In this document: one piece after another, positions 8,464 to 64,000 of the stretch | Layout: each line of letters begins with the position of its first letter | Numbering within the stretch: the first letter of the stretch is position 1 | DNA from: Anaerolineae bacterium | Lineage (GTDB): Bacteria; Chloroflexota; Anaerolineae; Aggregatilineales; Phototrophicaceae | Assembly: GCA_017303635.1 (NCBI GenBank) | Contig: JAFLCG010000002.1 | Location: 156,918-220,917 of the forward strand | Length of the DNA: 64,000 nucleotides | Direction: 5' to 3' | Program-made: the position numbers and the translations under genes | The notes under the pieces: model-generated | Databases searched by the model: none | What the model saw: only the letters and a program-made list of their open reading frames with translations | What the model was told of the DNA's origin: nothing

Positions 8464-8501
8464 CTGATTTACGCAAGTCCTATCCACAAGAAACGAGGTC
8501 T

Positions 8502-32550: not shown

Positions 32551-32847
32551 GGCGGTGACTGGACATTTTTGACAGATTCGACACGTTGGACAGCGGTTCG
32601 GCGCTCGTGCTGGCAGCAATCGCACTGGGGGGGGTGTTGCAGCGGTTGCTGCTATTTCAGCCGGGCGGTTTTGTTGGCAGTCTCTAAAGGGATTTCCTTC
32701 GGTCATGGCGGCTATGGCGGCTGTGGCAGACCCCCTCCGCCGCCACAAGCTTGTTGTCGTTGATGTCGTTGTCGGCTATTCCTTTTAGGGCCAAGGTGAC
32801 AAGCTCAGATCGTCTCACAGGATCACGATACCACAGATCGGGGCGGG

Positions 32848-32871
32848 AAATTGGAACATATGTTCCAATTT
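32848..32871. promoter_or_regulatory. 24-bp perfect palindrome with a GAAC-N4-GTTC (Cheo/SOS-box-like) core
   Basis: AAATTGGAACATATGTTCCAATTT. A near-identical copy lies at 63476-63501. Confidence 0.35.
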
Positions 32872-32894
32872 TGGGGCGAGTTTTGGTAGCGGCA

Positions 32895-32995
32895 GGGGCA
32901 AAGACAGACGCCTCACCCCCGCCCCTCTCCCGCGCGACCCTTAGCGGTTGGGCAGTTGAGATTATCCGGGGCCGGGTCGCTGGAGAGGGGAATCA
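32895..32995 (-). repeat. MITE-like inverted-repeat element (CCCCTCTCCAGCGAcCCG ... GGGTCGCGcGGGAGAGGGG..GGGGGTGAGGCGTCTGT)
   Basis: The reverse complement aligns with the copies at 59525-59615 and 62355-62439, including the GAGGCGTCTGT tail. Confidence 0.7.
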
Positions 32996-33240
32996 GGCGA
33001 GCAACAACAGCTTTTTGGCAATTTCGACGGCGACAGGTGTTACAACAGCAAGGTTCTTAGCTACTTCAATCAGACTCTTGCCTTTGATTTCCAAACTCCA
33101 TCGATTTGGTTCTTCTTTTGCAGCCGCCTCGATGGCTCCCTCAGCATATTCCTGAATAATAGAAGGATCGTTTATTCACAGTGCAAAAAGGTATAATCAC
33201 AGTATATAAATGAATTAGAAGATAGTGCTCCAAAAGAGAT

Positions 33241-35553
33241 ATGCGAATTCTAGCTGATTTCCACATACGCCCACTCCGTATGGCATACATTGTCAATCGC
33301 TCTATCAATCATAGCGATCTGAACTTGATATATAAATATAATACAGAGCATTGGGGAGGTCTTTATAATCTGTTTGTCCCCACAGATGGGGATTCAATAC
33401 GCAATGATTGGCTACATCTGCTTACCTTACACGATCCTGATGTTCTGTTCCTCGTGGGAGAGATTGATAGTGATCTCGTAGACTCACTTTATCTTTTGCT
33501 TCAGCCTTTAGGTATCTTCAATTGGGATGCAGTACTTTCTAATGTTATAGCTGGAAAACCAACAACTGTAGATGGGCTACAAGTTAATGCGATTCTTGAG
33601 AGTATTCTGGCGGAGAATGGTCGACAAAAGTTCGAACAATCTAATATGCGTTATCCTGAATCTTCTGGAGATTTCTCAAAATACTTGGAGATAATCTGTG
33701 GATCATGGCATTCGAATTCAAATTATCTGAAATTCTCTGAAGAATACTTGGGAGCGATCAAAACACCTTTACATCCCAGGACTTTGTCAGATTACCTGTC
33801 AAATCTGGACATGATACATGACCATGTTTTTCCACTTGATATTTCAGCACACCAACTAAAACCATCCTTTGGTCTTCCTTTTGCGCTATCGAATCATTCA
33901 GTTGTTGTGTCTAATGGGCTTATAGATGATTTGTTTCTATATCACGCGATGCGCTGGTCCGGCAGAAGCCGGAATCTCAAATGGTCAAAGATTATTGTCC
34001 CAATACAGTCGCTAGCATCAGATAATGACTATGATGTTTTGGCTAAATGGCTAGGTTCTTCGATTCGAGGAAATACATTTGATTTGGTAAGTCACAGCAT
34101 GGAAATGGATGTTCTCCAGGATATTCGAGAAAAATTACGTGTTTATCTGACTGAACGTTCATCATTAAGCGCGAGAAGTCATTGGCACATTCATATTCGT
34201 AGATGTAACGTGCATATTGCAGTTCCCACAGTTAGTCATCTAAAACGCACCCAACTTGTAGAAAAAAGAGAACAAGTATATTCCTTTGCAATTCCCAAAC
34301 TTAAGTTTGGTGGAGACGGCGGAGATCAGCGTTTTCAAAACAAGCAAATGATCTGTGAAGTAAATCTCTCACCTAAATTTGGAGATAAACGCGCCTATAC
34401 ACCTAGTATGTTTAGCCGTCTAAACTTCCTGCTTTCAGGTTATCCAAGTCTTGAATGGTTCCAACACACCTTTGCTCATATCAGAATTGCTCGTGGACAA
34501 CTTGCTCTGCTTATCGATAAAAATATTGACATGAATAGCATTAGGATCCCAAATGATAAAGTGACAATCGAAACAGCTTGTGAGGATGCTGGTTTTGAGG
34601 TTAAGGCGGATCAGAGGAACTACTACAAGGGGATAATGAGCCTATTAGGTAGCATAGAAAAAGCAAATTTTCTACATAACGCGAACATCCGCCAGATGTT
34701 TTTGGAGCGTAAATTCATAAAGGGAGAAGCCATTACTCATTCAGAGATAATTACTCCACTAAAGCGCAAGCAAGCTGACTCAGCGGATTTCGTTCAACTG
34801 GTTCAAGGATTGGCAGGAAACAAAATACTATTACGAGGTTATCAACTTAAGTGCCCAACCTGCGGTCTAGAATCATGGTACAACTTGGGTCACATGCGCG
34901 AACATATGCTCTGTGAGGGCTGTCAAACTCGATATCAATTGCCCTTGCAGGTTGACTTTGTATATAAGCTAAATCGTCTCTTTACAGATAAATATAATCA
35001 AGGTGTTGTAACTGTATTGCTCTCTCTCCTTCTTCTTAAGCAAACAAGCCGCGATGGGCTGATCTGGCAAGCAGATGTTAACCTAAAGAAAAATGACCAA
35101 GAAGTGGAGATAGATGTTATTGCCATGTGTGATGGGGCATTAATTCTGATCGAATGCAAAAATAGTTTCCTACCCTTTAACGACGGGAAGAATAAGGCTA
35201 ACTACGATATCAAACGCGACAAAGCTGTTAAAGACTTAGTCAATCAACTAGACCGACAAATTGCCATCGCACACAAGTTAGAAGCTCATCTGTTTTTGTT
35301 TGCAACTCTCGAGGATGATGTGCCAGATGAAGTCAAAGACTTCTTACATGAACAAGATTCCAAACATAATAAAATGCGAATCCGGCTAGTTGCTAAATCT
35401 GAGCTAATTGAGGGCAAGTTCAAAATAGATGGTGGAGAGAATAATTTTATATCAATATATGAAATCATTGGCAAAGATGTATTTGTAGAAGCCCATATAG
35501 CAGATGATTGTACCGATATCGAATTTCCTAAAGATGGAATAATTTTCTTTTAA
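33241..35553 (+). CDS. Hypothetical 770-aa protein: large unassigned N-terminal region + C4 zinc ribbon + PD-(D/E)xK / NERD-like nuclease domain
   Basis: A single long ORF in a strongly AT-rich segment. CPTC-x16-CEGC at aa 538-561. EVEIDVIAMCDGALILIECKNS at aa 621-642 gives D625-x12-E638-x-K640. No P-loop or helicase motifs seen. Confidence 0.75.
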   Translation: MRILADFHIRPLRMAYIVNRSINHSDLNLIYKYNTEHWGGLYNLFVPTDGDSIRNDWLHLLTLHDPDVLFLVGEIDSDLVDSLYLLLQPLGIFNWDAVLSNVIAGKPTTVDGLQVNAILESILAENGRQKFEQSNMRYPESSGDFSKYLEIICGSWHSNSNYLKFSEEYLGAIKTPLHPRTLSDYLSNLDMIHDHVFPLDISAHQLKPSFGLPFALSNHSVVVSNGLIDDLFLYHAMRWSGRSRNLKWSKIIVPIQSLASDNDYDVLAKWLGSSIRGNTFDLVSHSMEMDVLQDIREKLRVYLTERSSLSARSHWHIHIRRCNVHIAVPTVSHLKRTQLVEKREQVYSFAIPKLKFGGDGGDQRFQNKQMICEVNLSPKFGDKRAYTPSMFSRLNFLLSGYPSLEWFQHTFAHIRIARGQLALLIDKNIDMNSIRIPNDKVTIETACEDAGFEVKADQRNYYKGIMSLLGSIEKANFLHNANIRQMFLERKFIKGEAITHSEIITPLKRKQADSADFVQLVQGLAGNKILLRGYQLKCPTCGLESWYNLGHMREHMLCEGCQTRYQLPLQVDFVYKLNRLFTDKYNQGVVTVLLSLLLLKQTSRDGLIWQADVNLKKNDQEVEIDVIAMCDGALILIECKNSFLPFNDGKNKANYDIKRDKAVKDLVNQLDRQIAIAHKLEAHLFLFATLEDDVPDEVKDFLHEQDSKHNKMRIRLVAKSELIEGKFKIDGGENNFISIYEIIGKDVFVEAHIADDCTDIEFPKDGIIFF

Positions 35554-35572
35554 AGTGACGTATTAACAGAAA

Positions 35573-35599
35573 CAGCCACCCCATCAAATAGGGTGGCTG
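35573..35599. terminator. Bidirectional rho-independent terminator (island gene / clpC)
   Basis: cagccaccc-catcaaata-gggtggctg, flanked by a T-run on the plus strand (ttgtgttg) and an A-run upstream (reads tttctgtt on the minus strand). Confidence 0.7.
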
Positions 35600-35721
35600 T
35601 TGTGTTGCTACGTCGGGAGGACATACGCGCTGACGCGCTAGTCCTCCTCTACGAGTGTATACAATGGGTTGCGGGCGGACATGCGGACTCAGAAGGCCTT
35701 AGTCCGCCCCTACGGGAAAAT

Positions 35722-42539: not shown

Positions 42540-42837
42540 TGAAGAAGTACACAGTTCACAGTCACAGTGAAGACAGAGAAGTGAAGAGTGAAGGAGTGAA
42601 AGCGTAGGGACGGGGTGGGGTGAGGAAGCGGGTGGCTGGGCGGTCATTGGTGACCGGCTTTACCATGAAGCGTAGAGGATTTATTACGGCGGGAAGGGGA
42701 AGGATTACCTGTTATGCAGGGAAATAACAGGTCATTTATTTCGTTATATTACGGATGGAGATGAGCGGCGGGAATGGGTGAGTCCGCTTATAATTGAGCG
42801 CATTCTAGCGACGAGTGAGGCAACCACCGGGGACTTC

Positions 42838-42912
42838 ATGGCGTACATCTTCATCAGCTATAGCAGCAAGGATCGGGTGTTGGTCAGCGAACGGGCAGAC
42901 GACAGTGATTGA
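42838..42912 (+). pseudogene. TIR-domain N-terminal remnant (24 codons, then stop)
   Basis: MAYIFISYSSKDRVLVSERADDSD*. (I/F)FISYSxxD is the canonical TIR_2 start. It lies out of frame just upstream of the FGE domain. Confidence 0.5.
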
Positions 42913-42949
42913 AGTGACTCCACCTTCCCCACCTGCTGCCGGGACGCGA

Positions 42950-43681
42950 ATGATCGACGACTACGGCATTCCGATGGTATATGTGCCAGCAGGGAAATTC
43001 ATGATGGGCAGCAAACTCGGCGAGGGCTTTGCTGATGAACGTCCTCAGCACGAGCAGGTTATCCGGCTAGGTTTCTGGCTGGATGTGACACCCGTGACCA
43101 ATGAGAGTTATGCCCGCTTTGTGGCAGCAGGCGGCTATCAGAACCAAGACTACTGGACGGAACCCGTTTGGACACGGATGCAACGGAGACAGAAGACGGG
43201 CCCATACGATTATTGGAGTTATCGTGACCCGCAGCTACCTCGCGGAGGTGTAACCTGGTTTGAAGCCCATGCCTACTGCAACTGGCGGTGTGGACGGCTA
43301 CCGACCGAAGCCGAATGGGAGTGGGCGGCGCGTGGGCCGGAAAATCGAGTGTATCCCTGGGGCAACGTCTTTGACAGCAGCAGGGTTATTTACAATGGCA
43401 ATTCCAGTAGCGAGAAAGCACCAGTGGGTGAGAGCATTCGCCAAGGAGCTGCTTCCTGGGTGGGTGCGCTGGATATGAGTGGCAATGTCTCTGAATGGTG
43501 TAGCAGTCTTTACCAGCCCTACCCGTTTGATGCTGAGGATGGTCGAGAGGATATATCAGACGAAACACATGATCGCGTGGTGCGTGGACGTTCGTGGGAT
43601 AGTCGCGGGATGGCTCGCGGCAGGAACGTCCCACATATCGAGTTCAATACACTCGGTTTTCGGTGTGCACGCTCTGCCTGA
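42950..43681 (+). CDS. Formylglycine-generating enzyme family (SUMF1/FGE-sulfatase domain) protein
   Basis: MVYVPAGKFMMGS...ERPQHEQ, VTWFEAHAYCNW, RLPTEAEWEWAARG, VVRGRSW and GFRCARS. The track ORF starts at 42815. Confidence 0.8.
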   Translation: MIDDYGIPMVYVPAGKFMMGSKLGEGFADERPQHEQVIRLGFWLDVTPVTNESYARFVAAGGYQNQDYWTEPVWTRMQRRQKTGPYDYWSYRDPQLPRGGVTWFEAHAYCNWRCGRLPTEAEWEWAARGPENRVYPWGNVFDSSRVIYNGNSSSEKAPVGESIRQGAASWVGALDMSGNVSEWCSSLYQPYPFDAEDGREDISDETHDRVVRGRSWDSRGMARGRNVPHIEFNTLGFRCARSA

Positions 43682-43702
43682 GCGTTGTGTGGGATAGTAC
43701 GC

Positions 43703-43916
43703 CGGACGGCATTCTTGCCGTCCCTACGAATGGATTGGTAGTCCGCCGCGCCGCCTCATCAACCCCATATCGCCGCGTGGTAGGATGCCCGTAGGGACGC
43801 GATTATTCGCGTCCGCCCGCCGCCCCATCAACCCCATATCGCCTGATGGTGACCGGCCCCGGACGGCAAGAATGCCGTCCCTACGGATGGGTAGGGACGC
43901 GATTGTTCGCGTCCGC
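43703..43916. repeat. BIME-like cluster of four REP hairpins in alternating orientation upstream of the RayT gene
   Basis: GGACGGCATTCTTGCCGTCCCTAC (43703-43726, inverted), GTAGGGACGCGATTATTCGCGTCC (43790-43813), GGACGGCAAGAATGCCGTCCCTAC (43860-43883, inverted) and GTAGGGACGCGATTGTTCGCGTCC (43890-43913). Confidence 0.8.
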
Positions 43917-43985
43917 CACGCCTCTCAATGCAATCGCCATCTGCAACGAATATACAATCGTATCAACGTTCAGGAGGACGCATGG

Positions 43986-44543
43986 ATGCAATCCCTTCCC
44001 CGGCGCAAATCCCCACGTCTGAAGGAATATGATTACCGTCAGGCTGGAGCCTATTTTGTGACCATCTGCACTGTCAAACGGCTGGAATTATTCGGCACGA
44101 TCAATGATGGGGTAATGGCTCTGTCACCCCTGGGTCAGATTGCCAGCGAAGAATTATTATCCTTGCCTGCCCGCTGGCAATCCATCGATCTGGATGCCTG
44201 TGTGGTCATGCCGAATCATGTTCACGCGATCATTGTGATCGAAGCCGATGCCCAGGACGGCATTCTTGCCGTCCCTACCGACCCATCCGTAGGGACGCGA
44301 TTATTCGCGTCCGCCGCAGACCCATCCGCCACGCCATCATTGGGAAGCATTGTCGGCAATTACAAAGCAGGTGTGACACGCTTCGCCCGATCTGCGAACC
44401 TTATTGATGATGCTCAATCGATCTGGCAAACCCGTTATCATGACCATATCATTCGGTCTGAAGGAAGTCTGAACCACATACGCGCTTATGTCGAACAGAA
44501 TCCGGCGCGGTGGTCAGAGGATACTTTCTATTCTGTAGTCTGA
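43986..44543 (+). mobile_element. REP-associated tyrosine transposase (RayT / IS200-like Y1 HUH transposase)
   Basis: ATG at 43986 follows AGGAGG. YDYRQAGAYFVTICT, HUH motif MPNHVHAII, WQTRYHDHIIRSEGSLNHIRAYVEQNPARW. Confidence 0.8.
44255..44315. repeat. REP doublet (inverted + direct) lying in frame inside the RayT coding sequence
   Basis: GGACGGCATTCTTGCCGTCCCTAC-cgacccatcc-GTAGGGACGCGATTATTCGCGTCCGCC. It encodes DGILAVPTDPSVGTRLFASA between the HUH and Tyr motifs. Confidence 0.8.
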
Positions 44544-44745: not shown

Positions 44746-45012
<267 letters not shown>

Positions 45013-49270: not shown

Positions 49271-49408
49271 TTCTGTTTCCTCTGCACTGAATAGTGCATA
49301 TCCCGCCCGGCAAGCGTAGGTTATCCGCCCGGACTTACGTCGTCTGCTGCCCTATCCTGAAAAGTAGCTACAATGATCTACAGGTACCGACTTGAAAGGA
49401 TATGTTTT

Positions 49409-50575
49409 ATGCGACACTCACGATGGTTATTTGCTGTGCTCCTGGTGCTGCTATCCGCAGCGCTGATTGCGCCAACCCTGGCCCAGGGCATTGAGCCTGA
49501 CCCCGCCACCCCGCTCGACCCGAACGCCAACATCAGTTGGCCGCCGCCGGTCTATGTCCTGCGTGGACAATTTGAACTGCGCGGTTCGGCCAATCTGCCG
49601 AACATGACCAACTACTTCATCGAGTACCGCCCGGTGAGCGCCGACCTGGTCAATCTGCCGGATGAGAGTGTGCCGTGGCAGCCAGCCACTCTGCCGAGCG
49701 CCTCCGCCGTCTCCAACGATGTACTGGGTGTTTGGGATACCCGGTTGACGGATGACGGTCTGTACGAGCTGCGCCTGACGATCAATGTGCGCGGTGGGCA
49801 GCCCGTGTACTTCCGGTTAGCGCCGGTGCGGGTGGAGAATAATCCGCCGCCCTTTGCCGTCATCGCCACCCCGACTCAACTGCCGGTGGCCCTGCCGACC
49901 CTGTTACCCACCCCGACCGCTTTTGATCCGTCACCGCGGGTGACTGCCCGCCTGAATGCCAACGTCCGCCAGGGTGACAGCACCTTCTACGGTACTGTGG
50001 GCGCCTTGCTCAATGGCACCAGCGCACCGATTATCGGCATCAGCACGACCGGTTCGGGCTGGTTCCTGATCCAGTTGGACGACGGAAAGCGTGGCTGGAT
50101 TTCCCCGACGGTAGTGGATGTCAGCGGGGATCTGCGCCAGGTACCTTCGGTAGAACCGCCGCCGCCCCCGCCGCCGACGGCGACCCCCATCCCGCCGACT
50201 CCGGTCAGCGCGGTCAATCTGGTCGCAGGCAACTTCCGCTTCGATCCCTCGTCGCCAGTCTGCAACCAGACCTTCAATGTGTACATTGATGTGGCGAACT
50301 TCGGCACGGCCACCAGCCCCGGCGGCTTCATCGGGATACAGGATGTGCGCCGGTTGGATGGTACTCCGCAGGGTTCGACGGTCGGCTCCTTCGGCCCGAT
50401 TGCCCCTGGTCAGACCGTCAACATCGGCCCGATCCCGATCACCATCAGCACCTGGTACAACGAAGAACATACGCTGACCATGACGGTGGACGGTGCCAAC
50501 CAGATCGCCGAGACCAACGAAACCGATAATGTGCGGCAGGCGATTTACATCCTGCAGCGCGGCACCTGCCCGTAA
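49409..50575 (+). CDS. Secreted protein with SH3b-like and C-terminal CARDB-like domains
   Basis: Signal peptide MRHSRWLFAVLLVLLSAALIAPTLAQG. SH3b-like NANVRQGDS...GWFLIQLDDGKRGWIS, a Pro-rich linker, and CARDB-like NVYIDVANFGTATS...ETNETDN. Confidence 0.6.
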   Translation: MRHSRWLFAVLLVLLSAALIAPTLAQGIEPDPATPLDPNANISWPPPVYVLRGQFELRGSANLPNMTNYFIEYRPVSADLVNLPDESVPWQPATLPSASAVSNDVLGVWDTRLTDDGLYELRLTINVRGGQPVYFRLAPVRVENNPPPFAVIATPTQLPVALPTLLPTPTAFDPSPRVTARLNANVRQGDSTFYGTVGALLNGTSAPIIGISTTGSGWFLIQLDDGKRGWISPTVVDVSGDLRQVPSVEPPPPPPPTATPIPPTPVSAVNLVAGNFRFDPSSPVCNQTFNVYIDVANFGTATSPGGFIGIQDVRRLDGTPQGSTVGSFGPIAPGQTVNIGPIPITISTWYNEEHTLTMTVDGANQIAETNETDNVRQAIYILQRGTCP

Positions 50576-54872: not shown

Positions 54873-55784
54873 TTAGGGCACCGGATCGGCAAACCACCCG
54901 ACCACCTCATTTGCTGCCAGATTAAGCCGATAGCCGACCCATTCGTTCAGATCGAGGATGTAGACAAAGCCTTCATCATATTGACCAATACTCACCGCAA
55001 CTTGCTCCGCGGAGGGTGAGATAGCAAATTGAAAGCGGGTATCAATACAAGTGTCATAGATTTGTTGTAGCGCAGAGTCAAATACATAAACCGGGTGTGG
55101 CCAGGTATCGTAATCGGCAAACACTCGCATAGGAATGCCATCGTTGTTCGTATTGGCAGGGGAGTTCGTAAGCAAACCCCAGATCACATTGGCTGACTGT
55201 GAAAATTCCGCTGCTTGATCTGTATCAACAGGTAGTATTTCAGCAGTGAAGGGGTTGTAAATGTAGTCTCCAAGCCGTCGGTCTACTGCTGAGGCAGGCA
55301 CTATCGCAAAGCGTTGATTGTCTAGCCAATAGATGCCGCTGAACAATGCTGTGCGGGAAATGCCAGCAAAAGCATTTTCTTCATATGGGACCCGGTAGGA
55401 TTCAGTAGATGGAATTGTGGAAACGACTTTGATGCCGGTCGCACGATAAACCGAGTTGACCATCCCATACGAGAGCAGTCTACCAACAGGTATTGCAAAC
55501 CACTGTCCATCCGGGGAAAACGAGCCGGAACTAGCGAACTCTGATTGGCTATCGAAGGCGATGTAATAGCGCGTGGGGAAATCAGATCGGAAGCCGTGTA
55601 CACCATCTCTAAGTCGATAGGTGACAATGGTTCCCTCAAATGTCCATTCATCAGGCGGTTCCCGCAGGTCGGTGAGGCAGCGTTCGACGATGGGGTATGG
55701 CTCCGGTGTGGTTTCCTGAGCATGAGTGTGGTGAATAGCAAGTGTGGTAATGACTGAAAACAGGATCAATATCAGGTGGCGCAT
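54873..55784 (-). CDS. Secreted hypothetical protein (AT-richer), weak PD40-like motif
   Basis: Signal peptide MRHLILILFSVITTLAIHHTHAQE and FSPDGQWFAI. No catalytic motif recognised. Confidence 0.6.
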   Translation of the reverse strand: MRHLILILFSVITTLAIHHTHAQETTPEPYPIVERCLTDLREPPDEWTFEGTIVTYRLRDGVHGFRSDFPTRYYIAFDSQSEFASSGSFSPDGQWFAIPVGRLLSYGMVNSVYRATGIKVVSTIPSTESYRVPYEENAFAGISRTALFSGIYWLDNQRFAIVPASAVDRRLGDYIYNPFTAEILPVDTDQAAEFSQSANVIWGLLTNSPANTNNDGIPMRVFADYDTWPHPVYVFDSALQQIYDTCIDTRFQFAISPSAEQVAVSIGQYDEGFVYILDLNEWVGYRLNLAANEVVGWFADPVP

Positions 55785-55877
55785 ACTAATTTATCCGAAG
55801 CTGAGATGTGTTGATACGCTTATCGTAGCATCGGATAACCAATCACAACCTGACGTTTGGGCAACGCGAAAGAAACG

Positions 55878-56141
55878 TTATGCGCTCAGGGGGATAACCC
55901 GAACAGGGGTACCAAGCCGCCGCATGAAGTCCTGGCAGATGTCCCAGGTCAGCGGGAACGCAGCCGTATCGGCAGCGGCCAAGTGCGCGATCACATCCCG
56001 CACGAGCGCCGTATCCGATTCGGGTTCGATCCAGCCGTCGATGAAAAACGTCTCTGCCCAATCGACCAGTTGGGCGAGGGTTATCTCACCGTTGAGGTAG
56101 GCGAGGAGTTGGGTACTGACTGTGTGGCGGGTGAGTTTCAT
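55878..56141 (-). CDS. Small acidic hypothetical protein (87 aa)
   Basis: The ORF has a plausible start. No family recognised with confidence; its helical, acidic, Trp-rich composition resembles small immunity-type proteins. Confidence 0.45.
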   Translation of the reverse strand: MKLTRHTVSTQLLAYLNGEITLAQLVDWAETFFIDGWIEPESDTALVRDVIAHLAAADTAAFPLTWDICQDFMRRLGTPVRVIPLSA

Positions 56142-56211
56142 GGTTTAGTCCTCATCACGAGGTTTGATAATTTGATGTCCGGTATCAAGCTGAGTACAAA
56201 TAACATTTGTG

Positions 56212-56239
56212 ACAAAACGGGCGATCCGGTGGATCGCCC
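56212..56239 (-). terminator. Rho-independent terminator downstream of the present carB stop
   Basis: The minus strand reads GGGCGATCC-acc-GGATCGCCC followed by GTTTTGT. Confidence 0.6.
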
Positions 56240-56282
56240 TCCAAATCTGTATTCAATCAGGCTCCGGCTGGATACCCACCAA

Positions 56283-59200
56283 TTACCCCCAGTGATGCGT
56301 CTGCAAGCTCCGCACGCGCAGGGGCTTCTGCCGCACCGACCGGATCGCCTGCACCGCGGCTGCCGCGCCCGTCAGCGTGGTAAAGATCGGTACGCCATAC
56401 GCCACCGCTGCCCCGCGAATCGCGTAGCCATCCGCGTGCGATTGCCCGCCGCGGGGCGTGTAGATAATCAGGTCAATCTCGCCCTGCCGGATCGAGTCGA
56501 TCACAGTGGGGGCGTCTTCGCTGGGCTTGCGGACGACCTCCGCCGTGATGCCCACCTCGCCCAGCGCCTTGGCCGTACCGACCGTCGCCACCAGCTTGAA
56601 CCCTAGCTTGACCAGATCCTGCGCCAGCTTGACCATCGCGTTCACGTCATATGGGTTGACGCTCACCAGCACCGTCCCACTTTGGGGGAGTGGCGCATTG
56701 GCGGCCATCTGCGCCTTGGCAAAGGCATGACCAAAGCTGGAGGCGTGACCCATCACCTCGCCGGTCGAGCGCATCTCCGGCCCCAACCGCGCATCCACGC
56801 CGGGGAACTTCTGGAAAGGCAGCACCACCTCCTTGATGAAGAAGCCATCCACCGGTGGCTCTTCCTCAAAGCCCAACTCGGCTAGAGTCTTCCCAGCAGC
56901 GATCTGCGCGGCATACCCCGGCAGCGGCGCCCCCACCGCCTTGCTCACATACGGCGAGGTCCGGCTGGCCCGCGGATTGACCTCCAGCACATAGACGATC
57001 TCATCCCGCAGCGCGAACTGGATGTTGAACAAGCCCTTGATCTTCAGCGCCTTGCCGATGCGCTCGGTGTATTCGCGGATGATCTCGATGTGGTACAGCG
57101 CCACCTTATACGGCGGCATCACGCAGGCCGAGTCCCCGGAATGCACACCGGCTTCTTCGATCTGCTCCATAATGCCGCCGATGGTGACGTTCTCGCCGTC
57201 GCAGAGTGCATCCACGTCCAGCTCAAAGGCGTCATCCAGGAAGCGGTCAATCAGCACCGGATGCCCGTTCCATTCGATGTGTTTCTCAATCCAGCCCAGC
57301 AGTTCGGCATCATCGAAGACGATACCCATGCCGCGACCGCCCAGCACATAACTCGGCCTGACCAGCACCGGGTAGCCGATGCGGTTAGCAACTGCCAGCG
57401 CCTCCGCCTGATTGAGCGCCGTGCCGCCGTCCGGCTGCGGGATATCCAGTTCAGCCAGCACCGCATTGAACCGCCGCCGGTCCTCCGCCAGATCAATCGT
57501 GTCATAGGACGTGCCGACGATGGGCGCACCGGCTTCATGCAGTTGCCGGGCGATATTCAGCGGGGTTTGACCTCCGAACTGCACCAGCACGCCATCCGGC
57601 TTTTCCGCCTCGATGATGTTCATCACATGCTCGAACGTCAGCGGCTCAAAGTACAGTCGGTCGGCGGTGTCGTAATCCGTACTGACCGTCTCCGGGTTAC
57701 AGTTGATCATGATGGTCTCATAGCCCAACTGCTTGAGCGCGAAGCAGGCATGGACGCAGCAGTAATCGAACTCGATGCCCTGCCCGATGCGGTTGGGTCC
57801 GCCGCCCAGCACGATCATCTTGGGTTTGTCGGTCGGCTCGGATTCATCGCCTTCTTCATAGGTCGAATACAGGTAGGGCGTGTGCGCCTCGAACTCCGCC
57901 GCGCAGGTATCCACCCGGTAGTAACTGGGAATGACGCCCAGCGCCTTGCGTCGCTCCCGCACCTGCATCTCCGGCACATTCAAGAGCTTGGCGATGTGCG
58001 CGTCGGTATAGCCATAGCGTTTGAGCTTGCGGAAGTCCGCCGCATCCAGCCGATCCAGCGTCAGCCCCTTGCGGAGGATAGTGTGCTGGATGCGGATGAT
58101 ATCCGCCATATGCTGCACGAACCAGGGATCAAAGGCGGTCGTCTTGACCACCTCCTCCGGGGACATGCCCTCGAACAGGGCCGACGCCACCTGGAACAAG
58201 CGCTGCGCCGTCGGTACCCCGATCACCTCGGCGCGCGGATCAGCCGGCTTGGCACCGAAGCCCGTCATGCCGATGTCCAACCCGGTGATGGCCTTCTGCA
58301 GCGCCTCTGGGAAGGTGCGCCCAATGGACATGACCTCGCCGATGGCCTTCATCTGCGGCCCCAGCACCGGATCGACTCCCTGGAACTTCTCGAAGTTCCA
58401 GCGCGGGATTTTGACCACCACGTAATCCAGCGACGGTTCAAAGCTGGCGGGTGTCACGCGGGTGATGTCGTTGGGGATTTCATCCAGCGTGAAGCCCACT
58501 GCCAGCAGTGCCGCGATCTTGGCGATGGGGAAGCCGGTCGCCTTGCTCGCCAGCGCCGATGACCGTGACACGCGCGGGTTCATCTCGATCACAAAGACCT
58601 CGCCGGTCGTCGGGCTGATGGCAAACTGCACGTTCGCGCCGCCCGTCGCCAGCCCGACCCGATCCAGCACCACCCGCGCCATATCGCGCAGGCGCTGTAA
58701 CTCGCGGTCGGTGAGGGTCTGCGCCGGGGCGACCGTGATGCTGTCCCCGGTGTGGACGCCCATCGGGTCAAGGTTCTCAATCGAACACACCACCACAAAG
58801 TTCCCCTTGTGGTCGCGCATGACCTCGACTTCAAATTCCTTCCAACCGAGCAGACTCCGGTCGATCAGCACCTGCCCGACCGGACTCAGCTTGATGCCCC
58901 GCGCCGCGATCTCTCGCAGGTCGGCCTCGTTGTAGGCCACCCCGCCGCCGGATCCGCCCAGGGTGAAGGATGGGCGCACCAGCACCGGATACTCCAGCAC
59001 CTGCGCCGCCCGCACCGCCGCCTCCACGTTATCGACTACCTCGCTCGGCGGTGATTTGAGACCGACCTCGGTCATGGCGTCCTTGAACAACTGCCGATCT
59101 TCCGCGAGGCGGATGCTTTCCAGATTCGCGCCGATCAGTTCGATTTGGTGCTTTTCCAGCGTGCCGCGTTCGTGCAGCGCCAGCGCCAGATTGAGCGCCG

Positions 59201-59480
59201 TCTGCCCGCCGACCGTCGGCAGGATGGCATCCGGTTTTTCCTGCTCGATGATGCGCTCGACCATCTCCGGCGTCAGCGGCTCAACATAGGTGGCATCGGC
59301 GAATTCGGGATCGGTCATGATGGTCGCCGGGTTGGAGTTGACCAGCACGATCCGGTAGCCTTCGCGGCGCAGCACCTTGCAGGCCTGCACGCCGGAGTAG
59401 TCGAACTCGCAGCCCTGCCCGATCACAATCGGGCCAGAGCCAATCACCAGAATCGTGTGTAGATCAGTGCGTTTGGGCAT
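56283..59480 (-). CDS. carB: Carbamoyl-phosphate synthase large subunit
   Basis: [30 protein letters not shown], duplicated ATP-grasp halves (second: [17 protein letters not shown]) and a C-terminal MGS-like domain. 1065 aa. Confidence 0.95.
56285..56340 (-). repeat. carB 3'-terminal 56 nt (direct repeat, copy 2; the functional gene end)
   Basis: See 54781-54836. The two differences are synonymous (CCC/CCG Pro, CTG/TTG Leu). The stops, which lie outside the 56 nt, are TAA here and TAG in copy 1. Confidence 0.9.
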
Positions 59481-59524
59481 GGGGGATAGGTCCTCAACAG
59501 GGTGCGTATGCTGCGCCGACCGCC

Positions 59525-59615
59525 TTCCCCCTCTCCAGCGATCCGACTCTCACCGCGTCTTATCCTTCAGCAGCAGGAGGGTCGCGGCGGGAGAGGGGGC
59601 CAGGGGGTGAGGCGG
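59525..59615 (+). repeat. MITE-like inverted-repeat element, copy flanking the TIR island (left)
   Basis: cccctctccagcgatccgactc...gggtcgcggcgggagagggggccagggggtgaggcg. Confidence 0.7.
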
Positions 59616-59709
59616 ATTGGGCTTCTCACCACGAGGATGCTATCCGATTCCGGGCGGGTAATCCAGCGGCGGGGCGTCTGAATCGGGTTGGTCAGGTTGC
59701 ACAGGGCGC

Positions 59710-59745
59710 AAAATCATTGCCGGGACATATTGGGGATGTCCCGGC
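59710..59745 (-). terminator. Terminator of the TIR/PPC operon
   Basis: A 10-bp stem gccgggacat-attgggg-atgtcccggc. The minus strand continues aatgatttt. Confidence 0.55.
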
Positions 59746-59757
59746 TCGACATCGAGA

Positions 59758-61062
59758 TCACTGCGAAAGGGTAATTACATAAACACCAGCTTGTGAGGGA
59801 TCAAGATTTGAATCGAGGCTGGCTAGGTAGAAGACAAGAGTATGAACTCCATCTGAAGTAATTAGGAGGTTGGTCGTGAAATTCTCTGAATTGCCCATAG
59901 CTAGTGCAAAAATTGGAACACTATCTGGCCCGTACACTGTGAATCCAAGAGGATTTGTCCCACTTTGCCGTTGAATTTGAATGCTGTAAGTATCTCCTGC
60001 ATTTGCCTCGACAATACTTGTGTATACAATGTCCTGTGCGATAGCAACTGTTAGTGGTGCATCAAGCGACAGAGGTAAATTGATCCCACCATCAGTTTCT
60101 GCCAACGGAATCCCGGCCGGTAAATTGATTTCTTCAGCAGGAGAAGGTGTGCCAGATTGAATATCAACCCCAGTTACCGAACTGGTAGTAGTATTTGGAG
60201 TAGAAGATGATGCAAGCTCAGGTTGTTCTACTAAGTCAACGAACGCAGATGTTCCGGCCTGAATTTCGACATTATCGGGTGTTATACAACCAATAGAGAG
60301 CGTATAATTTCCTCCTTGATTGACATCATGGCGTGAAGTTACACCAGCAACGATTATGAAGTACACACCAGTGGTTGGTAATCCAGATGTCTGAATTGAA
60401 TCTATCGTCGCACGATTGTAATAGGTATCAGGTTCAATAATGAATCTTTCATTATGACTTCCAAAGTTCTTGATTACTCCAGTATCAATTTTGAGGTCGA
60501 AACTGTTCTGAATTACTTCTACTACTGCCTTTAGCACAGTTCCTCTCTCCAAGGTTAAGTAATATCTATGATAAGGTTCATTGGGTGCAAACTCGTTTTC
60601 ATAAACCGAACCACATTCACTTGCGACAACACTCCGATTACTCGAAACCACTTCGCCGTTGGCTTTAACACAACTAATGTTCAGCTCAAATGATCCTCCT
60701 TGATCTGTACTTCCACTGACAATTATTTTGTAGTCGCCAGGAACAAACACTTCACGAGTGTTATACACATGGTAGACGGCAGCGTTATAGTAGACATCTA
60801 GTTCATCAAGAACAGTGGCGTTGGGCGATACAATGGAAAAGTCCACTCTTAAATTACCACCGGTTACTCTTATGTCAGCGATCATAGAGTCCTTTACGGC
60901 TAGGTTAACTGAGAATTCTTGAACCTCTCGATTTCGATTCATTACACCTGCATACACCTGCCCACATTCAAGATGCTGTTGGGCAATTACACTTTGGGTT
61001 GCCCCCATGAAACTTATCATCAACACAAGAATTACTAGCAGTCGATAGGAATGCATTTGCAT
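59758..61062 (-). CDS. Secreted protein with three PPC-like (pre-peptidase C-terminal type) beta-sandwich modules
   Basis: ATG at 61062 follows GGAG, then a signal peptide. Repeated modules run from ECG.VY to G(G/N).(F/Y).L.I.C (ECGQVYAG...GGSFELNISC; ECGSVYENE...GGNYTLSIGC). AT-rich. Confidence 0.6.
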   Translation of the reverse strand: MQMHSYRLLVILVLMISFMGATQSVIAQQHLECGQVYAGVMNRNREVQEFSVNLAVKDSMIADIRVTGGNLRVDFSIVSPNATVLDELDVYYNAAVYHVYNTREVFVPGDYKIIVSGSTDQGGSFELNISCVKANGEVVSSNRSVVASECGSVYENEFAPNEPYHRYYLTLERGTVLKAVVEVIQNSFDLKIDTGVIKNFGSHNERFIIEPDTYYNRATIDSIQTSGLPTTGVYFIIVAGVTSRHDVNQGGNYTLSIGCITPDNVEIQAGTSAFVDLVEQPELASSSTPNTTTSSVTGVDIQSGTPSPAEEINLPAGIPLAETDGGINLPLSLDAPLTVAIAQDIVYTSIVEANAGDTYSIQIQRQSGTNPLGFTVYGPDSVPIFALAMGNSENFTTNLLITSDGVHTLVFYLASLDSNLDPSQAGVYVITLSQ

Positions 61063-61082
61063 TGTCGTCTCCAAAACCAATT

Positions 61083-62210
61083 CTAAGGGCAGCCAAGCGG
61101 CGGACGGGAAAAGTCATCGTGTGTTACCCAACCAGTATTGTTGTCATACACGATCTGATACCACATTACTCCATTGCGCTCCTCACTATCAAGCACATCA
61201 ACCTCTGTGGAAGGTTCAATAGGAGGGGCCATTGTTCGTGAAGCAGGTGCAACTCTGACTATCGAGATTTTAGGCAAATCGCTATCGACAATCATGGCAG
61301 TACATCTATCGACTATCACAGCGACAACTAACGTTGAAGTGATGATAGGCGTCAAAGTAATGGAAGGTGTTGGCGTAATAGCAAGTGCGGTCTGCGTAAA
61401 ATAACTACTTGCCGTGCTTGCTGCATTATTGATTGCGATTTGCGCCTCATTGGTGCCAACAAAAATGGTAGCTGCAAGATCGGGAGTAAATGTGTAAGTT
61501 GACGTGATCGAAGGCGTAGAAGTTGGGTGTGCAGTCGGTGATGGTTCAGCTGATGTAGATGTAACTTCAATTACTGTTTGGGTGACAGAAGGTGTAGACG
61601 TACTTGTGGGAATGAATGGAATAGGTGTAGTTGCTGCAAGGATGGGTTGAACAATTAAAGTTGGAGCTATTGCTGTTGGCAAGATGACATCATTGGTTGG
61701 TAAAGGGCGCATAATGAACGCTGAAATGATAAGACCTACAAAACCAAGTATTCCTATAGCGATAGTGATTGTGCGGTCAACTCTCGACACTTCTGTTCTG
61801 GTAATTTCTGTTTGGGGAGGCTTGTTAGAGTCATCTTGCTCAACTGCTATTGCATCTACTTGCAAAATTCTATGTATTGCGGTGTAAACTGGGTCTGGTA
61901 TTGATGGAAGCTTTGTCCCTCGTAAATCAATGTAGTTGAATTTCCATGATCCAATCCAAGGTTCACCCTCTATCAATAGGCCAATTATTGGAATCTTGAG
62001 TGCCTCTGCTAATTTATGTTCTTCTTTAACCCACTGAGACTCGTATGAAGCACTCGACTGAACAAGCAACATAACCGAAGACTCATGAAGTGCGGCAGCG
62101 GTATTGGTTACGTCACGAAGTACATCGAAGCCCTTGACTTGGAGTTCTCGTTCGAGCTTTCCTGCGAAATGCTCATTTTCCTGACTGTAGCTGATGAATA
62201 TGCGAGCCAT
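61083..62210 (-). CDS. TIR domain - TM - Thr/Pro/Ser-rich linker - SH3b-like domain protein
   Basis: ATG at 62210 (MARIFISYSQENEHFAGKLERELQVKGFDV...SSASYESQWVKEEHKLA = TIR_2 pattern with the W-x-x-x-E glutamate). TM segment ITIAIGILGFVGLIISAFIM. C-terminus GVMWYQIVYDNNTGWVTHDDF. Confidence 0.7.
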   Translation of the reverse strand: MARIFISYSQENEHFAGKLERELQVKGFDVLRDVTNTAAALHESSVMLLVQSSASYESQWVKEEHKLAEALKIPIIGLLIEGEPWIGSWKFNYIDLRGTKLPSIPDPVYTAIHRILQVDAIAVEQDDSNKPPQTEITRTEVSRVDRTITIAIGILGFVGLIISAFIMRPLPTNDVILPTAIAPTLIVQPILAATTPIPFIPTSTSTPSVTQTVIEVTSTSAEPSPTAHPTSTPSITSTYTFTPDLAATIFVGTNEAQIAINNAASTASSYFTQTALAITPTPSITLTPIITSTLVVAVIVDRCTAMIVDSDLPKISIVRVAPASRTMAPPIEPSTEVDVLDSEERNGVMWYQIVYDNNTGWVTHDDFSRPPLGCP

Positions 62211-62354
62211 TACAGTTGCCCTAAGGACCATCAAGCTAGATATTGGAATTGCTGACATAAACATGCGGAATGGAAACACTATAGCCTGAGTTGCAAATCA
62301 TTGCTATCAATCAAATATTAAAGAAAAGTAAACCCTTCTGCTGCCGTACTTACT

Positions 62355-62439
62355 CCCCTTTCCAGCGACCCGACTCCCAGATAGTCTCCCTTTCCCATCA
62401 AGTAAGGGTCGCGGCGGGAGAGGGGTTGGGGGTGAGGCG
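62355..62439 (+). repeat. MITE-like inverted-repeat element, copy flanking the TIR island (right)
   Basis: cccctttccagcgacccgactc...gggtcgcggcgggagaggggttgggggtgaggcg. Same orientation as 59525-59615. Confidence 0.7.
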
Positions 62440-62890
62440 TCTGTGCGGCACACTTAGAAACACGCTGGCGCAGCTTGTTGATCCCAACTTCAGGGACGCG
62501 GAGGGGTGAGGCGTCTGTGCAGCACGCTTAGAAGCGTGCTGGCAGAGGTTGTTTATCCCAACTTCAGGGACGCGGAGGGGTGAGGCGTCTGTGCGGCACG
62601 CTTAGAAACGCACTGGCGCAGCTTGTTTATCCCAACTCCAGGGACGCGGAGGGGTGAGGCGTCTGTGCAGCACGCTTGGAAACGTGCTGGCAGAGGTTGT
62701 TTATCCCAACTTCAGGGACGCGGAGGGGGTGAGGCGATCCTGCGGCACGCTTGGAAACGTGCTGGCGCCGGTTGTTTATCCCAACTTCAGGGACGCGGAG
62801 GGGTGAGGCGTCTGTGCGGCACGCTTAGAAACACGCTGGCGCAGCTTGTTGATCCCAACTTCAGACACGCGGAGGGGTGAGGCGGTACTG
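62431..62890 (+). repeat. 74-bp tandem repeat, 6 full units + 1 diverged partial unit
   Basis: GGTGAGGCG unit starts at 62431, 62505, 62579, 62653, 62728, 62802 and 62876 (period 74, with one of 75). Units alternate between two subtypes. Confidence 0.9.
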
Positions 62891-62991
62891 CGCTACCGCT
62901 AGAAACCCCTCCATTCGACTCACAACCTCAATCCATCGCCCATCCCATCTCGCCTAGAATCGAATTACACACATCGAAAGGAGCAACCCCC

Positions 62992-63378
62992 ATGTCCGAT
63001 GACCACCCCGACCAGTACACCGTCAAGCGGGAACGGTGGGGGACGCTCAAAGCCCGCTCCCGCGAGATGCGCCACCAACCCACCTCCGCCGAAGAGCACC
63101 TGTGGAAGTACCTGCGCGGACGGCGGCTCAACGGAGCCAAGTTCCGCCGCCAGCACGCCATTGACCAGTTCATCGTCGATTTTGTCTGCATCGAGCAGCT
63201 GTTGATTGTGGAGGTGGATGGCCTCGTCCATGAAGTTCCCGACCAGCGCGACCGGGATGTGAATCGGCAGGCGCACCTGGAAGGCATGGGTTATCGTATA
63301 CTGCGCTTCACCAATGCCGAGGTACTGCAATCGGTGAGGGCGGTACTGGAAGTCATCGGCGCGGCCTTGCAGGAATAG
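62992..63378 (+). CDS. DUF559 (Vsr-like fold) endonuclease-domain protein
   Basis: EEHLWKYLRGRRLNGAKFRRQHAIDQFIVDFVCIEQLLIVEVDG...RDRDVNRQAHLEGMGYRILRFTNAEV. Confidence 0.85.
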   Translation: MSDDHPDQYTVKRERWGTLKARSREMRHQPTSAEEHLWKYLRGRRLNGAKFRRQHAIDQFIVDFVCIEQLLIVEVDGLVHEVPDQRDRDVNRQAHLEGMGYRILRFTNAEVLQSVRAVLEVIGAALQE

Positions 63379-63475
63379 CGCACTTCATCACGGCGGCGAA
63401 CTGCCTCCAGGTACGAATGAGATGCGGCCAGGCTCCGCGACTGTGTAGGGCAGGTTTGCCCCTGAAAATCGACAC

Positions 63476-63501
63476 AAAATCGGAACATATGTTCCGATTT
63501 T
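63476..63501. promoter_or_regulatory. 26-bp perfect palindrome with a GAAC-N4-GTTC core (second copy)
   Basis: AAAATCGGAACATATGTTCCGATTTT, about 250 nt upstream of chrA. Confidence 0.35.
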
Positions 63502-63751
63502 CAACCCCAATCGCTGCTATCCTATCTACAGGTCTGGTACCCATTCGGCAACCAGCGTCCAGACCTGACAAAAGGGCAAACTTCACTGCCGGGTCATCGC
63601 CGCCGCCGCCGCCGCCGCAAAAGTCCACGCGACGATCATCACCCACCTGAACCCGCACCCATCCGTTAATCATCCTTAATCGTCGCGCACTGGAATGGCG
63701 GGCTGCCGATGGCTACCATAGCCGCACCCTGCTAGCCACACCGGAGCTGCC

Positions 63752-64000
63752 ATGTCTGTCCCGCCCGAATCCGCCCAACCTACCGTCACCTATGCCGAGT
63801 TGATTCGGTTCTTCCTCCGCTTCAGTCTGGTGGCCTTCGGTGGCCCGCCCGCCCATATCGCCCTGGGCGAGGCCGAGATGGTCAGCCGGCGCAAGTGGCT
63901 CACCCGCGAGCACTATCTGGATCTGGTCGCCGCCACCAACCTGATCCCCGGCCCCAACAGCACCGAGGTGATGATCCACGTCGGCTATGTGCTCAAGGGC
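63752..64000 (+). CDS. chrA: Chromate transporter ChrA, N-terminal part (runs off the right edge)
   Basis: My translation is MSVPPESAQPTVTYAELIRFFLRFSLVAFGGPPAHIALGEAEMVSRRKWLTREHYLDLVAATNLIPGPNSTEV, with the CHR-family motifs FGGP and PGPNS. Confidence 0.85.
   Translation, partial: MSVPPESAQPTVTYAELIRFFLRFSLVAFGGPPAHIALGEAEMVSRRKWLTREHYLDLVAATNLIPGPNSTEVMIHVGYVLKG

Follow-up and report, generated by a model that had tools for sequence, protein, structure and literature searches.

What does a sharply bounded block of AT-rich DNA beside the core gene carB encode in an Anaerolineae bacterium, and does it belong to a wider system? The block lies in a stretch of 64,000 nucleotides (GenBank assembly GCA_017303635.1, contig JAFLCG010000002.1, positions 156,918 to 220,917), which is called the window here and is numbered from its first letter. 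Positions 59750-62350 of the window have a guanine-plus-cytosine (GC) content of 0.39-0.46, with 0.60-0.66 on both sides, and encode two genes, A and B, both on the minus strand. Gene A specifies a membrane protein with a TIR domain predicted to face the cytoplasm and an SH3b-like domain predicted to lie outside, and gene B specifies a predicted secreted protein. The finding is more general than in the sequence-only reading that preceded this analysis: gene A belongs to a large, so far undescribed family, and the pair is a conserved two-gene module. The A+B cassette is horizontally acquired in an Aggregatilineales-like (Chloroflexota) genome, and the site that it occupies is a hotspot at which cassettes vary between strains.

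Domain Architecture and Topology of Gene A

Gene A (61083-62210, minus strand, coordinates including the stop codon) encodes a protein of 375 amino acids with the order TIR, transmembrane (TM) helix, stalk, and SH3b domain, and both its domain layout and its topology signals are plain. Its start, MARIFISYS, is supported by homologues that begin M-x-H-I-F-I-S-Y-S. The cytoplasmic TIR domain occupies residues 1-125 (61836-62210, minus strand), as supported by the family alignment and by Pfam TIR_2 (PF13676), which matches residues 4-98 with E 4.3e-11 and 43.8 bits against a gathering score of 28. A single TM helix with hydropathy up to 2.6 follows at residues 147-169 (61704-61772, minus strand). 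Residues 170-295 (61326-61703, minus strand) form an extracytoplasmic stalk that is recognized by its Thr/Pro/Ser/Ile/Ala-rich composition, the roughly 130 residues past the helix consisting mainly of T, I, S, A, and P.

The outer end of the protein, residues 296-375 (61086-61325, minus strand), is an SH3b-like ectodomain that ends in Cys-Pro and is referred to here as SH3b-CP. Gene A holds just two cysteines, C303 and C374, and these flank the C-terminal domain. Pfam SH3_3 matches residues 334-365 with E 4.6e-4 and 20.8 bits, under its gathering score of 27. This weak match is credible because the homologous domains of three relatives, P0023 (27.7), P0083 (32.0), and P0061, pass the gathering score; the P0083 domain, with a GW score of 25.0, is also over the GW threshold. 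The SH3b-CP domains of gene A and its relatives align column for column, with C303, W361, C374, and P375 invariant. The TIR-in/SH3b-out single-pass layout proposed by the sequence-only reading is thus borne out by the TIR_2 match, the one TM helix, and a positive-inside signal across the family. On this evidence, the gene A product is predicted to be a type-II single-pass membrane protein with a disulfide-bracketed SH3b/GW-like domain at its outer end.

A Family of TIR Proteins with Swappable Ectodomains

Relatives of gene A were collected by an exhaustive HMMER search with gene A as the query at E<=1e-3, and counts refer to cluster representatives, of which there are 432. Among the best 149 of these 432, a TM helix past residue 100, usually near residue 150, is present in 108. 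In these 108 members, the 15 residues before the helix contain a mean of 3.39 Lys+Arg, compared with 0.91 after it; 96 of the 108 have more of these residues ahead of the helix than behind it (Wilcoxon p 5e-18), which constitutes the positive-inside signal. The 100 residues after the helix consist on average of 36% Thr+Pro+Ser across the family. A census of 111 scanned members found TIR_2 in 110, FGE-sulfatase in 15, SH3_3 in 11, and PD40 in 10; ricin lectin, other propellers, and the solute-binding domain SBP_bac_1 occur as further ectodomains. The members of the family are thus TIR proteins that cross the membrane once, N-in/C-out, and carry exchangeable binding domains on the extracytoplasmic side, and gene A shares its start motif, single TM helix near residue 150, T/P/S stalk, and C-terminal binding domain.

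Five members (P0011, P0013, P0023, P0061, and P0078) share the complete layout of gene A, TIR-TM-stalk-C...SH3b...CP. The best relative of gene A among about 15 billion proteins is approximately 30-37% identical, and no close relative was found; word-indexed searches with A and B gave the window's own proteins plus one weak match. The sequence-only reading had known of no described protein with this architecture. It is not unique, given the 432 relatives and the several with an identical layout, but no description of the family or of the SH3b-CP + B pair was found in the searched papers and defense catalogues, among them the Aravind-lab surveys of multicellular bacteria and a 2025 catalogue of TIR signaling systems, a coverage that excludes subscription journals.

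The window holds a remnant of another TIR-TM-ectodomain family member at 42838-43681. Its start, "MAYIFISYSSKD", ends after 12 codons and is out of frame with the FGE-sulfatase open reading frame (ORF) of the remnant, which spans 42815-43681, encodes 288 amino acids, and ends LGFRCARSA.

Pairing of the SH3b-CP Domain with Gene B

Gene B has homologues beside other SH3b-CP genes. At locus L002 (GCA_040007395.1), a gene for a secreted protein of 291 amino acids begins 12 nt past the TIR gene and aligns with B at E 1e-14. Overall, 12-70 nt separate the SH3b-CP gene from a downstream B homologue at L002, L007, L008, L011, L028, and L029. Loci L009, L010, and L012 are grouped with L011, and the pairing count comprises seven distinct loci including the window. 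A B-family profile matches the L029 partner, which was outside the profile input, at E 4e-26, and at L003 a disrupted partner start alone remains before the contig end. All SH3b-CP genes with enough downstream sequence have a co-oriented B-family gene immediately after them (7/7 distinct loci).

The control set was drawn from the wider TIR family and comprised 80 metagenomic loci, chiefly of the FGE-sulfatase and ricin types, and none of these 80 has an SH3b-CP domain or a B-family gene. Controls were testable when they contained a complete TIR gene and at least 400 bp of downstream sequence (n=43). A B homologue stands beside none of the 43 testable non-SH3b family loci, which compared with 7/7 gives a Fisher p of about 1e-8. 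Conserved pairing, whose absence the sequence-only reading had named among the results that would refute it, therefore holds at 7/7 loci against 0/43 controls.

The partner is tied to the SH3b-CP domain rather than to the TIR domain. P0083 is a TM-stalk-SH3b-CP protein without a TIR domain, and a B gene comes after it; at L028, a secreted protein of 301 amino acids that likewise lacks a TIR domain ends in SH3b-CP and is followed by a B gene. Because the link holds without TIR, the conserved couple is SH3b-CP + B, both predicted to lie outside the cell, and the TIR-TM protein is one of several carriers. The partner is also polymorphic. Loci L011 and L012, from different samples, are 100% identical over 1,080 bp, a stretch that takes in the SH3b gene and ends 225 bp into the partner; beyond this point there are 22 mismatches in 146 bp with 11 amino-acid changes, and homology is then lost.

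Genes of a defense-like or mobile type stand near several SH3b-CP loci: at L028 a PLD+SNF2 helicase, at L002 a resolvase and a relaxase, at L009 and L010 phage-type DAM/GNAT genes, and at L011 another TIR gene. Viral collections contained no relatives of P0083 or of the L002 partner.

At L011, direct repeats of about 85 bp (2297-2390 and 4080-4165; 82% identical) flank the SH3b-CP + partner pair. These repeats contain a terminator hairpin, and the start of another TIR gene (MAQIFISYRR) comes after the pair, which suggests tandem cassettes with repeated intergenic regions in a metagenomic lineage unrelated to the window. L028 has a larger cluster at 3922-9521 beside the PLD+SNF2 helicase gene. 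It includes a TIR-TM protein with a different ectodomain, a B-family gene, a secreted protein in which SH3b-CP is preceded by a related N-terminal domain, and two secreted proteins of many SH3b repeats.

Modular Structure of the Gene B Protein

The product of gene B (59758-61062, minus strand) is a secreted protein with a signal peptide and three modules, 434 amino acids long. Its probable start is ATG 61062, with a GGAGA ribosome-binding site 6 nt upstream, and its homologues likewise begin directly with the signal peptide; an alternative start at TTG 61080 is possible but less likely. With the probable start at ATG 61062, the gap between the two genes is 20 nt, which replaces the 3 nt given in the sequence-only reading and leaves B directly downstream of A. 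A terminator-like hairpin stands 13 nt past the gene B stop codon (59745-59719, minus strand), with a 10-bp stem and a T-rich tail AATGATTTTG, and matches the terminator previously proposed after this gene.

Two N-type modules occupy residues 30-135 and 147-262 of the protein, and a Ser/Thr/Pro linker separates them from a C-type module at residues 333-434. The N-type modules are bounded by C33-C131 and C150-C259, while the third module has no Cys. Of the description as three Cys-bounded PPC-like modules, the number of modules stands, the Cys bounds apply to two of them only, and the PPC matches are sub-threshold. Pfam found no PPC match at a useful score in gene B itself (E 3.8, 8.9 bits). 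In five of six partner homologues, PPC (PF04151) matches the C-type module with 13-23.9 bits against a threshold of 25.9. The partner homologues have one N-type and one C-type module, and the N-type module is duplicated in gene B.

AlphaFold modeling of gene B reached a predicted local distance difference test (pLDDT) score of 35.5 from the single sequence and 48.9 with a 5-row alignment. The best Foldseek match of the latter model in the PDB is the tandem PPC-type collagen-binding domains of ColG (E 2.8e-9, model pLDDT 48.9), with low TM-scores of 0.19/0.32. The fold matches are treated as weak because pLDDT reached just 48.9. The "PPC-like" label is nevertheless reasonable, though not proven: it was a fair choice in view of the sub-threshold PPC matches in five of six partner homologues and of ColG as the best structural match.

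Catalytic Residue and BB Loop of the TIR Domain

Gene A keeps S58, W60, V61, and E64 of the SxW-x3-E motif (W60-V-K-E-E64). A phmmer search of gene A against PDB sequences returned nothing, and a family profile was needed. This profile, built from 15 family TIR domains, matches AbTIR, SARM1, TIR-APAZ, and other solved TIR enzymes that cleave nicotinamide adenine dinucleotide (NAD+; the enzymes are termed NADases) with E of about 1e-10. The family W-V-x-x-E is aligned with W-V-H-K-E of SARM1, whose Glu is the catalytic E642, and the column is nearly invariant in the family. E64 falls in this column together with the SARM1 and AbTIR Glu, in agreement with the earlier statement that gene A retains the catalytic Glu.

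The sequence-only reading had missed a gap of about 10 residues in the same domain. Directly after strand B, gene A lacks the 10-residue BB-loop segment "I-D-Y-G-x-x-W-x-x-x", which all aligned relatives keep. It also departs from the family by W31->L and P77->G, and its TIR_2 score of 43.8 bits is about half of the 80-100 bits found in relatives. The catalytic residue of gene A is thus in place, but the loop on which active TIR-TIR assembly depends in SARM1 and AbTIR is shortened, and it is uncertain whether this copy is active.

A Strain-Variable Cassette Site at carB

The A+B block lies between carB (56283-59480, minus strand), a conserved core gene, and a conserved gene for a DUF559 endonuclease-like protein (62992-63378, plus strand). 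GC averages are 43.0% for the island, 63.2% for carB, and 57% for the whole window; on line 61621-61680, for which the sequence-only reading had estimated about 43%, the measured value is 43.3%. Two plus-strand copies of a repeated flank element bracket the cassette. The left copy (59528-59615) lies 48 nt upstream of the carB start, which agrees with the placement of the island upstream of carB, and the right copy (62355-62440) lies 145 nt upstream of the gene A start. From the right copy the sequence continues into a 74-bp tandem array of 6.1 copies with 88% matches (62429-62884, plus strand), and a GC-rich junction, segment S (59632-59704), separates the terminator from the left copy. Positions 59382-62482 are 100% identical in an independent public assembly (Logan contig, SRR13786856). 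A sigma-70 promoter scan was uninformative, with 7 sites versus 4.8 expected. A structured RNA or PyrR attenuator upstream of carB was dropped as a candidate, Rfam having no match at E<=1 in 55000-64000.

Metagenome-assembled genomes named "Aggregatilineales bacterium" are the source of proteins that share at least 90% identity with carB, the DUF559 protein, and a PatB-type lyase. Relatives were compared at this site in L112/L113 and L114, whose carB regions are 96.5% and 95% identical to the window, respectively. L112/L113 retain chrA, DUF559, the array, the array-side element, segment S, the carB-side element, and carB. Their cargo between the elements is an AT-rich gene that joins TIR_2 to a PA-IL-like domain (322 amino acids, lectin type, predicted to be cytoplasmic and without a TM helix; cassette at L112 5970-7776, equal to L113 688-2493). 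L114 has the array-side element only and two unrelated genes as cargo, with homology resuming at the carB start. The array varies in copy number, with about 9 units in L112 and 7.5 in L114. Three different cargos thus lie between DUF559/array and carB in the window, L112/L113, and L114, and two of the three cargo states contain TIR genes.

The element copies differ from their orthologues at 1-2 positions, the left copy differing from that of L112 at 2. Because both copies are conserved as orthologues around different cargo, the bracket is older than the present cargo. The carB/DUF559 site is a strain-variable cassette hotspot, and the repeats belong to the hotspot rather than forming the ends of a mobile island. 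The empty site that the sequence-only reading had suggested looking for was absent from the readable relatives (L112/L113, L114), which have alternative cassettes instead. No recombinase gene is present at the hotspot, and cargo exchange by homologous recombination in the conserved flanks would be the simplest mechanism. The L112 site additionally holds an inverted variant of the palindromic element, and segment S occurs three times around its cassette. Downstream of carB, the arrangement in the window differs from that in L112.

Flank Element, Array, and Other Features of the Window

The flank element is an imperfect palindrome of about 88 bp, which in the right copy reads CCCCTTTCCAGCGACCCGAC ... 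AAGGGTCGCGGCGGGAGAGGGG TT GGGGGTGAGGCG. The left and right copies share an exact 21-mer plus the 12-mer GGGGGTGAGGCG and are about 77% identical overall, and shuffled sequence gave no matches to the element. A third copy (32904-32991, minus strand) lies at the upstream border of a second AT-rich island. All three copies stand upstream of a gene in the same relative orientation. Their terminal arms, each of about 10 nt, can base-pair, and a stable hairpin was dropped as an explanation, the folding energy being no better than that of shuffles (z -0.8 to +0.6). The element is confined to this lineage in the collections searched: 596 Gb of reference genomes held only 15 unrelated single matches to a 20-mer, with the source genome not among them, metagenomes held no match to a 30-nt version, and viral collections held one chance match.

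The sequence-only reading had described the bracket as repeats resembling miniature inverted-repeat transposable elements (MITEs). Two same-orientation copies are real, but they are not MITEs and not island ends, since orthologous copies flank other cargo. A MITE is contradicted by the missing target-site duplication, by the restriction to 3 copies in 64 kb at AT-rich island borders, by an asymmetric tail, and by orthologous fixation. Integron attC sites were set aside for want of R''/R' core sites (RYYYAAC / GTTRRRY) at the element ends; the window parts with listed ORFs (21.5-24.5, 32-36.5, and 38.3-64 kb) contain no integrase ORF. An integrative island with att duplication was rejected, there being no recombinase gene and both repeats pre-existing around different cargo.

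The final 11 nt of the right element are also the start of the array unit. Each 74-bp unit holds an internal palindrome (CAGCACGCTTAGAAGCGTGCTG) without an Rfam match. The units are contiguous and have no spacers, which excludes a clustered regularly interspaced short palindromic repeat (CRISPR) array.

The second AT-rich island (33000-35600, GC about 0.40), whose upstream edge bears the third element copy, carries a single gene, for a 770-aa protein with a NERD nuclease-related domain (33241-35553, plus strand; 26.2 bits versus a gathering score of 22.1). Ahead of the NERD gene (region 32827-35600) lies a 57-bp segment that contains the perfect palindrome GGAACATATGTTCC and is found again at 63465-63521 and in L112. 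An IS200/RAYT-like Y1 transposase gene with a weak Y1_Tnp match and the HUH motif HVH lies at 43700-44543. It is surrounded, and even interrupted, by GTAG-headed repetitive extragenic palindromic (REP) sequences (GTAGGGACGCGATTATTCGCGTCC / GGACGGCATTCTTGCCGTCCCTAC); the flank element is not a REP of this gene, whose REPs are different and GTAG-headed. Between the RAYT gene and a membrane protein gene stands a (GCGGTCA)n heptanucleotide microsatellite followed by short CTATCGA/CTATCAG repeats (44812-44930). Three further loci (21834-23078, 54873-55784, and 49373-50575) hold lower-GC genes for secreted proteins of 414 and 303 amino acids without a Pfam match, and a gene for a 400-aa secreted SH3_3 + CARDB protein.

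Proposed Mechanism and Competing Explanations

The cassette is tentatively read as an envelope-facing receptor, an explanation that is favored here while being rated somewhat short of even. TIR NADases are switched on by oligomerization, as in SARM1, AbTIR filaments, SPARTA, TIR-SAVED, and TIR-STING. The B protein probably binds the SH3b-CP ectodomain outside the cell, and the two would jointly recognize a cue at the envelope or beyond it, for instance a phage particle, a lytic enzyme, or the surface of a foreign cell. The long Thr/Pro/Ser stalk would cross the envelope and hold the SH3b/GW-like domain off the membrane. Recognition of the cue would cluster the receptor, and clustering would bring the cytoplasmic TIR domains together and turn on NAD+ cleavage by induced proximity. 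The resulting loss of NAD+ would arrest or kill the cell, and the TIR domain would thereby serve within one protein both as the output of the sensor and as the effector. Binding of B to the SH3b-CP domain, the nature of the cue, activation by clustering, NADase activity, and a defensive role are what we infer; the variable ectodomains, polymorphic partner, and hotspot context fit a role in conflict or recognition.

Several points weigh against this reading. The SH3_3 match of gene A lies under the Pfam threshold, as do all PPC matches in B and its relatives, and the gene B model has low confidence and weak TM-scores. The BB-loop deletion, the W31L and P77G substitutions, and the low TIR_2 score suggest that the TIR domain of this copy may be weak or inactive. 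PADLOC and NCBIfam recognized no known defense system in the cassette, only weak generic TIR matches. The binding of B to SH3b-CP and the external cue are both proposed from sequence. SH3b and GW domains often merely anchor proteins to the cell wall, and the ectodomain might be such an anchor rather than a sensor. The defense-like neighborhood is anecdotal, being drawn from few loci on short contigs.

The hypervariability of the partner past a sharp breakpoint, next to a receptor gene that is identical between samples, could also mark the recognition of kin or neighbors in a filamentous multicellular bacterium. B would then be a polymorphic ligand, secreted or displayed at the surface, and the SH3b-CP receptor would read neighboring cells, with the TIR domain enforcing self/non-self discrimination or a developmental cell-death decision instead of phage defense. 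This is unlikely, although it suits the host lineage Aggregatilineales, which we take to be filamentous Chloroflexota, and the differences in cassette among strains with 95-96.5% identical carB. The retrieved passages of PMC7159879 and PMC8195603 tie TIR and lectin-like domains to multicellular conflict and apoptosis-like systems. The same features, however, fit a phage arms race equally; the polymorphism comes from one contig pair, and display of B on cells, or its exchange between them, is an assumption of this account. The SH3_3 and GW matches in relatives can be turned to another account, since these domain families are known for cell-wall binding: SH3b-CP and B would bind wall or sheath polymers as an envelope-anchored structural or adhesive module, and the TIR domain would be a non-enzymatic scaffold. 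The L028 B gene does lie among secreted multi-SH3b proteins, with SH3b-CP on a TIR-less secreted protein, and a shortened BB loop in gene A is compatible with a scaffold. The near invariance of the catalytic Glu and S-x-W in the family would be unexpected for a pure scaffold, however, the ectodomains are swapped freely among lectin-like binders as in receptor and conflict families, and the hotspot carries another TIR+lectin gene in relatives, all of which leave a structural role improbable.

It is likewise improbable that the cassette is a decaying passenger, a horizontal acquisition that is nonfunctional here, crippled in its TIR domain by the BB-loop deletion, and awaiting loss. Gene A has the most divergent TIR domain of the family (43.8 vs 80-100 bits, with the 10-residue deletion) and no close relative in about 15 billion proteins, its GC of 43% departs from the 57-63% of the host, a truncated TIR-FGE-sulfatase remnant lies elsewhere in the window, and the L003 partner is disrupted. 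Against decay, both ORFs are intact (375 and 434 codons), a ribosome-binding site, signal peptide, Cys pairs, and terminator are all present, the deletion is in frame and limited to one loop, and the independent assembly gives an identical sequence. A last explanation concerns the bracket, whose repeats would be att sites or MITE termini of a mobile island inserted upstream of carB. In its favor, each border of the island carries a direct copy and a third copy marks the border of the second AT-rich island, but it is very unlikely and largely refuted. L112 keeps both copies, with 1-2 differences, around a different gene, and L114 keeps the array-side copy with yet other cargo; paralogous copies, by comparison, are just about 77% identical. 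There is no recombinase and no target-site duplication, the asymmetric tail is shared with the 74-bp array, and the element is absent from 596 Gb of reference genomes and from metagenome and viral collections, bar chance single matches.

Relation to Known Systems

The receptor reading places gene A close to the TIR NADases (SARM1, AbTIR, TIR-APAZ/SPARTA, TIR-SAVED, TIR-STING), which share the Glu of W-x3-E and the union of sensor and TIR domain in one polypeptide, and whose activation by induced proximity is also predicted for gene A. The known enzymes respond to a cytoplasmic trigger (a nucleotide signal, a guide-target duplex, or the ratio of nicotinamide mononucleotide to NAD), whereas the sensor part of gene A is predicted to lie outside the membrane. 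Gene A further differs from SARM1 and AbTIR by its shortened BB loop.

Similarity to Thoeris is limited to a weak ThsB-type TIR match in gene A (PADLOC E 9e-5; NCBIfam ThcB4, 27 bits vs a cut-off of 220). The cassette has no gene for a ThsA-type or other cytoplasmic effector, and its partner B is a predicted secreted beta-sandwich protein. A catalogue of 29 Thoeris types places TM helices on effectors, not on an ectodomain-bearing TIR protein (bioRxiv 10.64898/2025.12.03.692087). Membership in Thoeris was rejected, as there are two genes only and the second is secreted and without an effector domain. The cyclic-oligonucleotide-based anti-phage signaling system (CBASS) and Pycsar were rejected as well, with no cyclase gene and no SAVED or STING domain, although the TIR part has a weak SAVED_TIR match (E 5.7e-4).

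Toll-like and IL-1 receptors, for example TLR4-MD-2, resemble the cassette in having a binding domain outside, a single membrane pass, and a TIR domain inside, as well as a secreted beta-sandwich accessory protein and variable ectodomains. In gene A the order is reversed, with an N-terminal TIR domain in a predicted type-II protein, and there are no leucine-rich repeats or immunoglobulin domains. Toll-like receptors recruit adaptors, whereas the TIR domain of gene A is of the enzymatic bacterial type, and the likeness is one of analogy, not of whole-protein homology.

The conflict systems of multicellular bacteria described by Kaur, Burroughs, Iyer, and Aravind (PMC7159879, PMC8195603) combine TIR domains with FGE-sulfatase ("FGS"), NPCBM, and lectin-fold domains, and they resemble the present family also in their enrichment in filamentous bacteria and their variable architectures, as far as the retrieved passages describe them. 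These passages treat FGS and NPCBM as intracellular sensors of invaders coupled to NTPases, and they contain neither a TIR-TM-stalk-ectodomain family nor an SH3b-CP + PPC-like pair.

Defense hotspots between core genes share with the carB site the constant flanks (here chrA, DUF559, and carB), differing AT-rich cargo, and TIR genes among that cargo, in addition to a NERD nuclease gene in the second AT-rich island of the window. The carB site differs from them by the lineage-specific palindromic element of about 88 bp, the 74-bp array, the repeated junction segments, and the absence of an integrase.

Biological Significance

The broadest statement suggested by these results is that bacteria, here Chloroflexota, possess an outside-in family of TIR receptors, a prokaryotic functional counterpart of the Toll-like receptors. 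Their swappable lectin, SH3b, or propeller domains would detect non-self at the cell surface and thereby switch on a NAD+-cleaving TIR domain in the cytoplasm, and the SH3b-CP subtype would work with a secreted PPC-like co-receptor analogous to MD-2. At present this statement is doubtful. If it is true, surface-level immune sensing would occur before any DNA enters the cell; to our knowledge, almost all characterized bacterial TIR systems sense intracellular events. Surface recognition would be coupled to NAD+ depletion, and SH3b-type members would need a dedicated secreted partner. The gene pair is small and tractable, since it comprises only two genes with a single TM helix and an evident catalytic residue, and the carB hotspot, which swaps TIR cassettes between near-identical strains, offers a natural comparison. 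The layout echoes the receptor and co-receptor logic of animal Toll-like receptors and would bear on the pre-eukaryotic wiring of TIR-based immunity.

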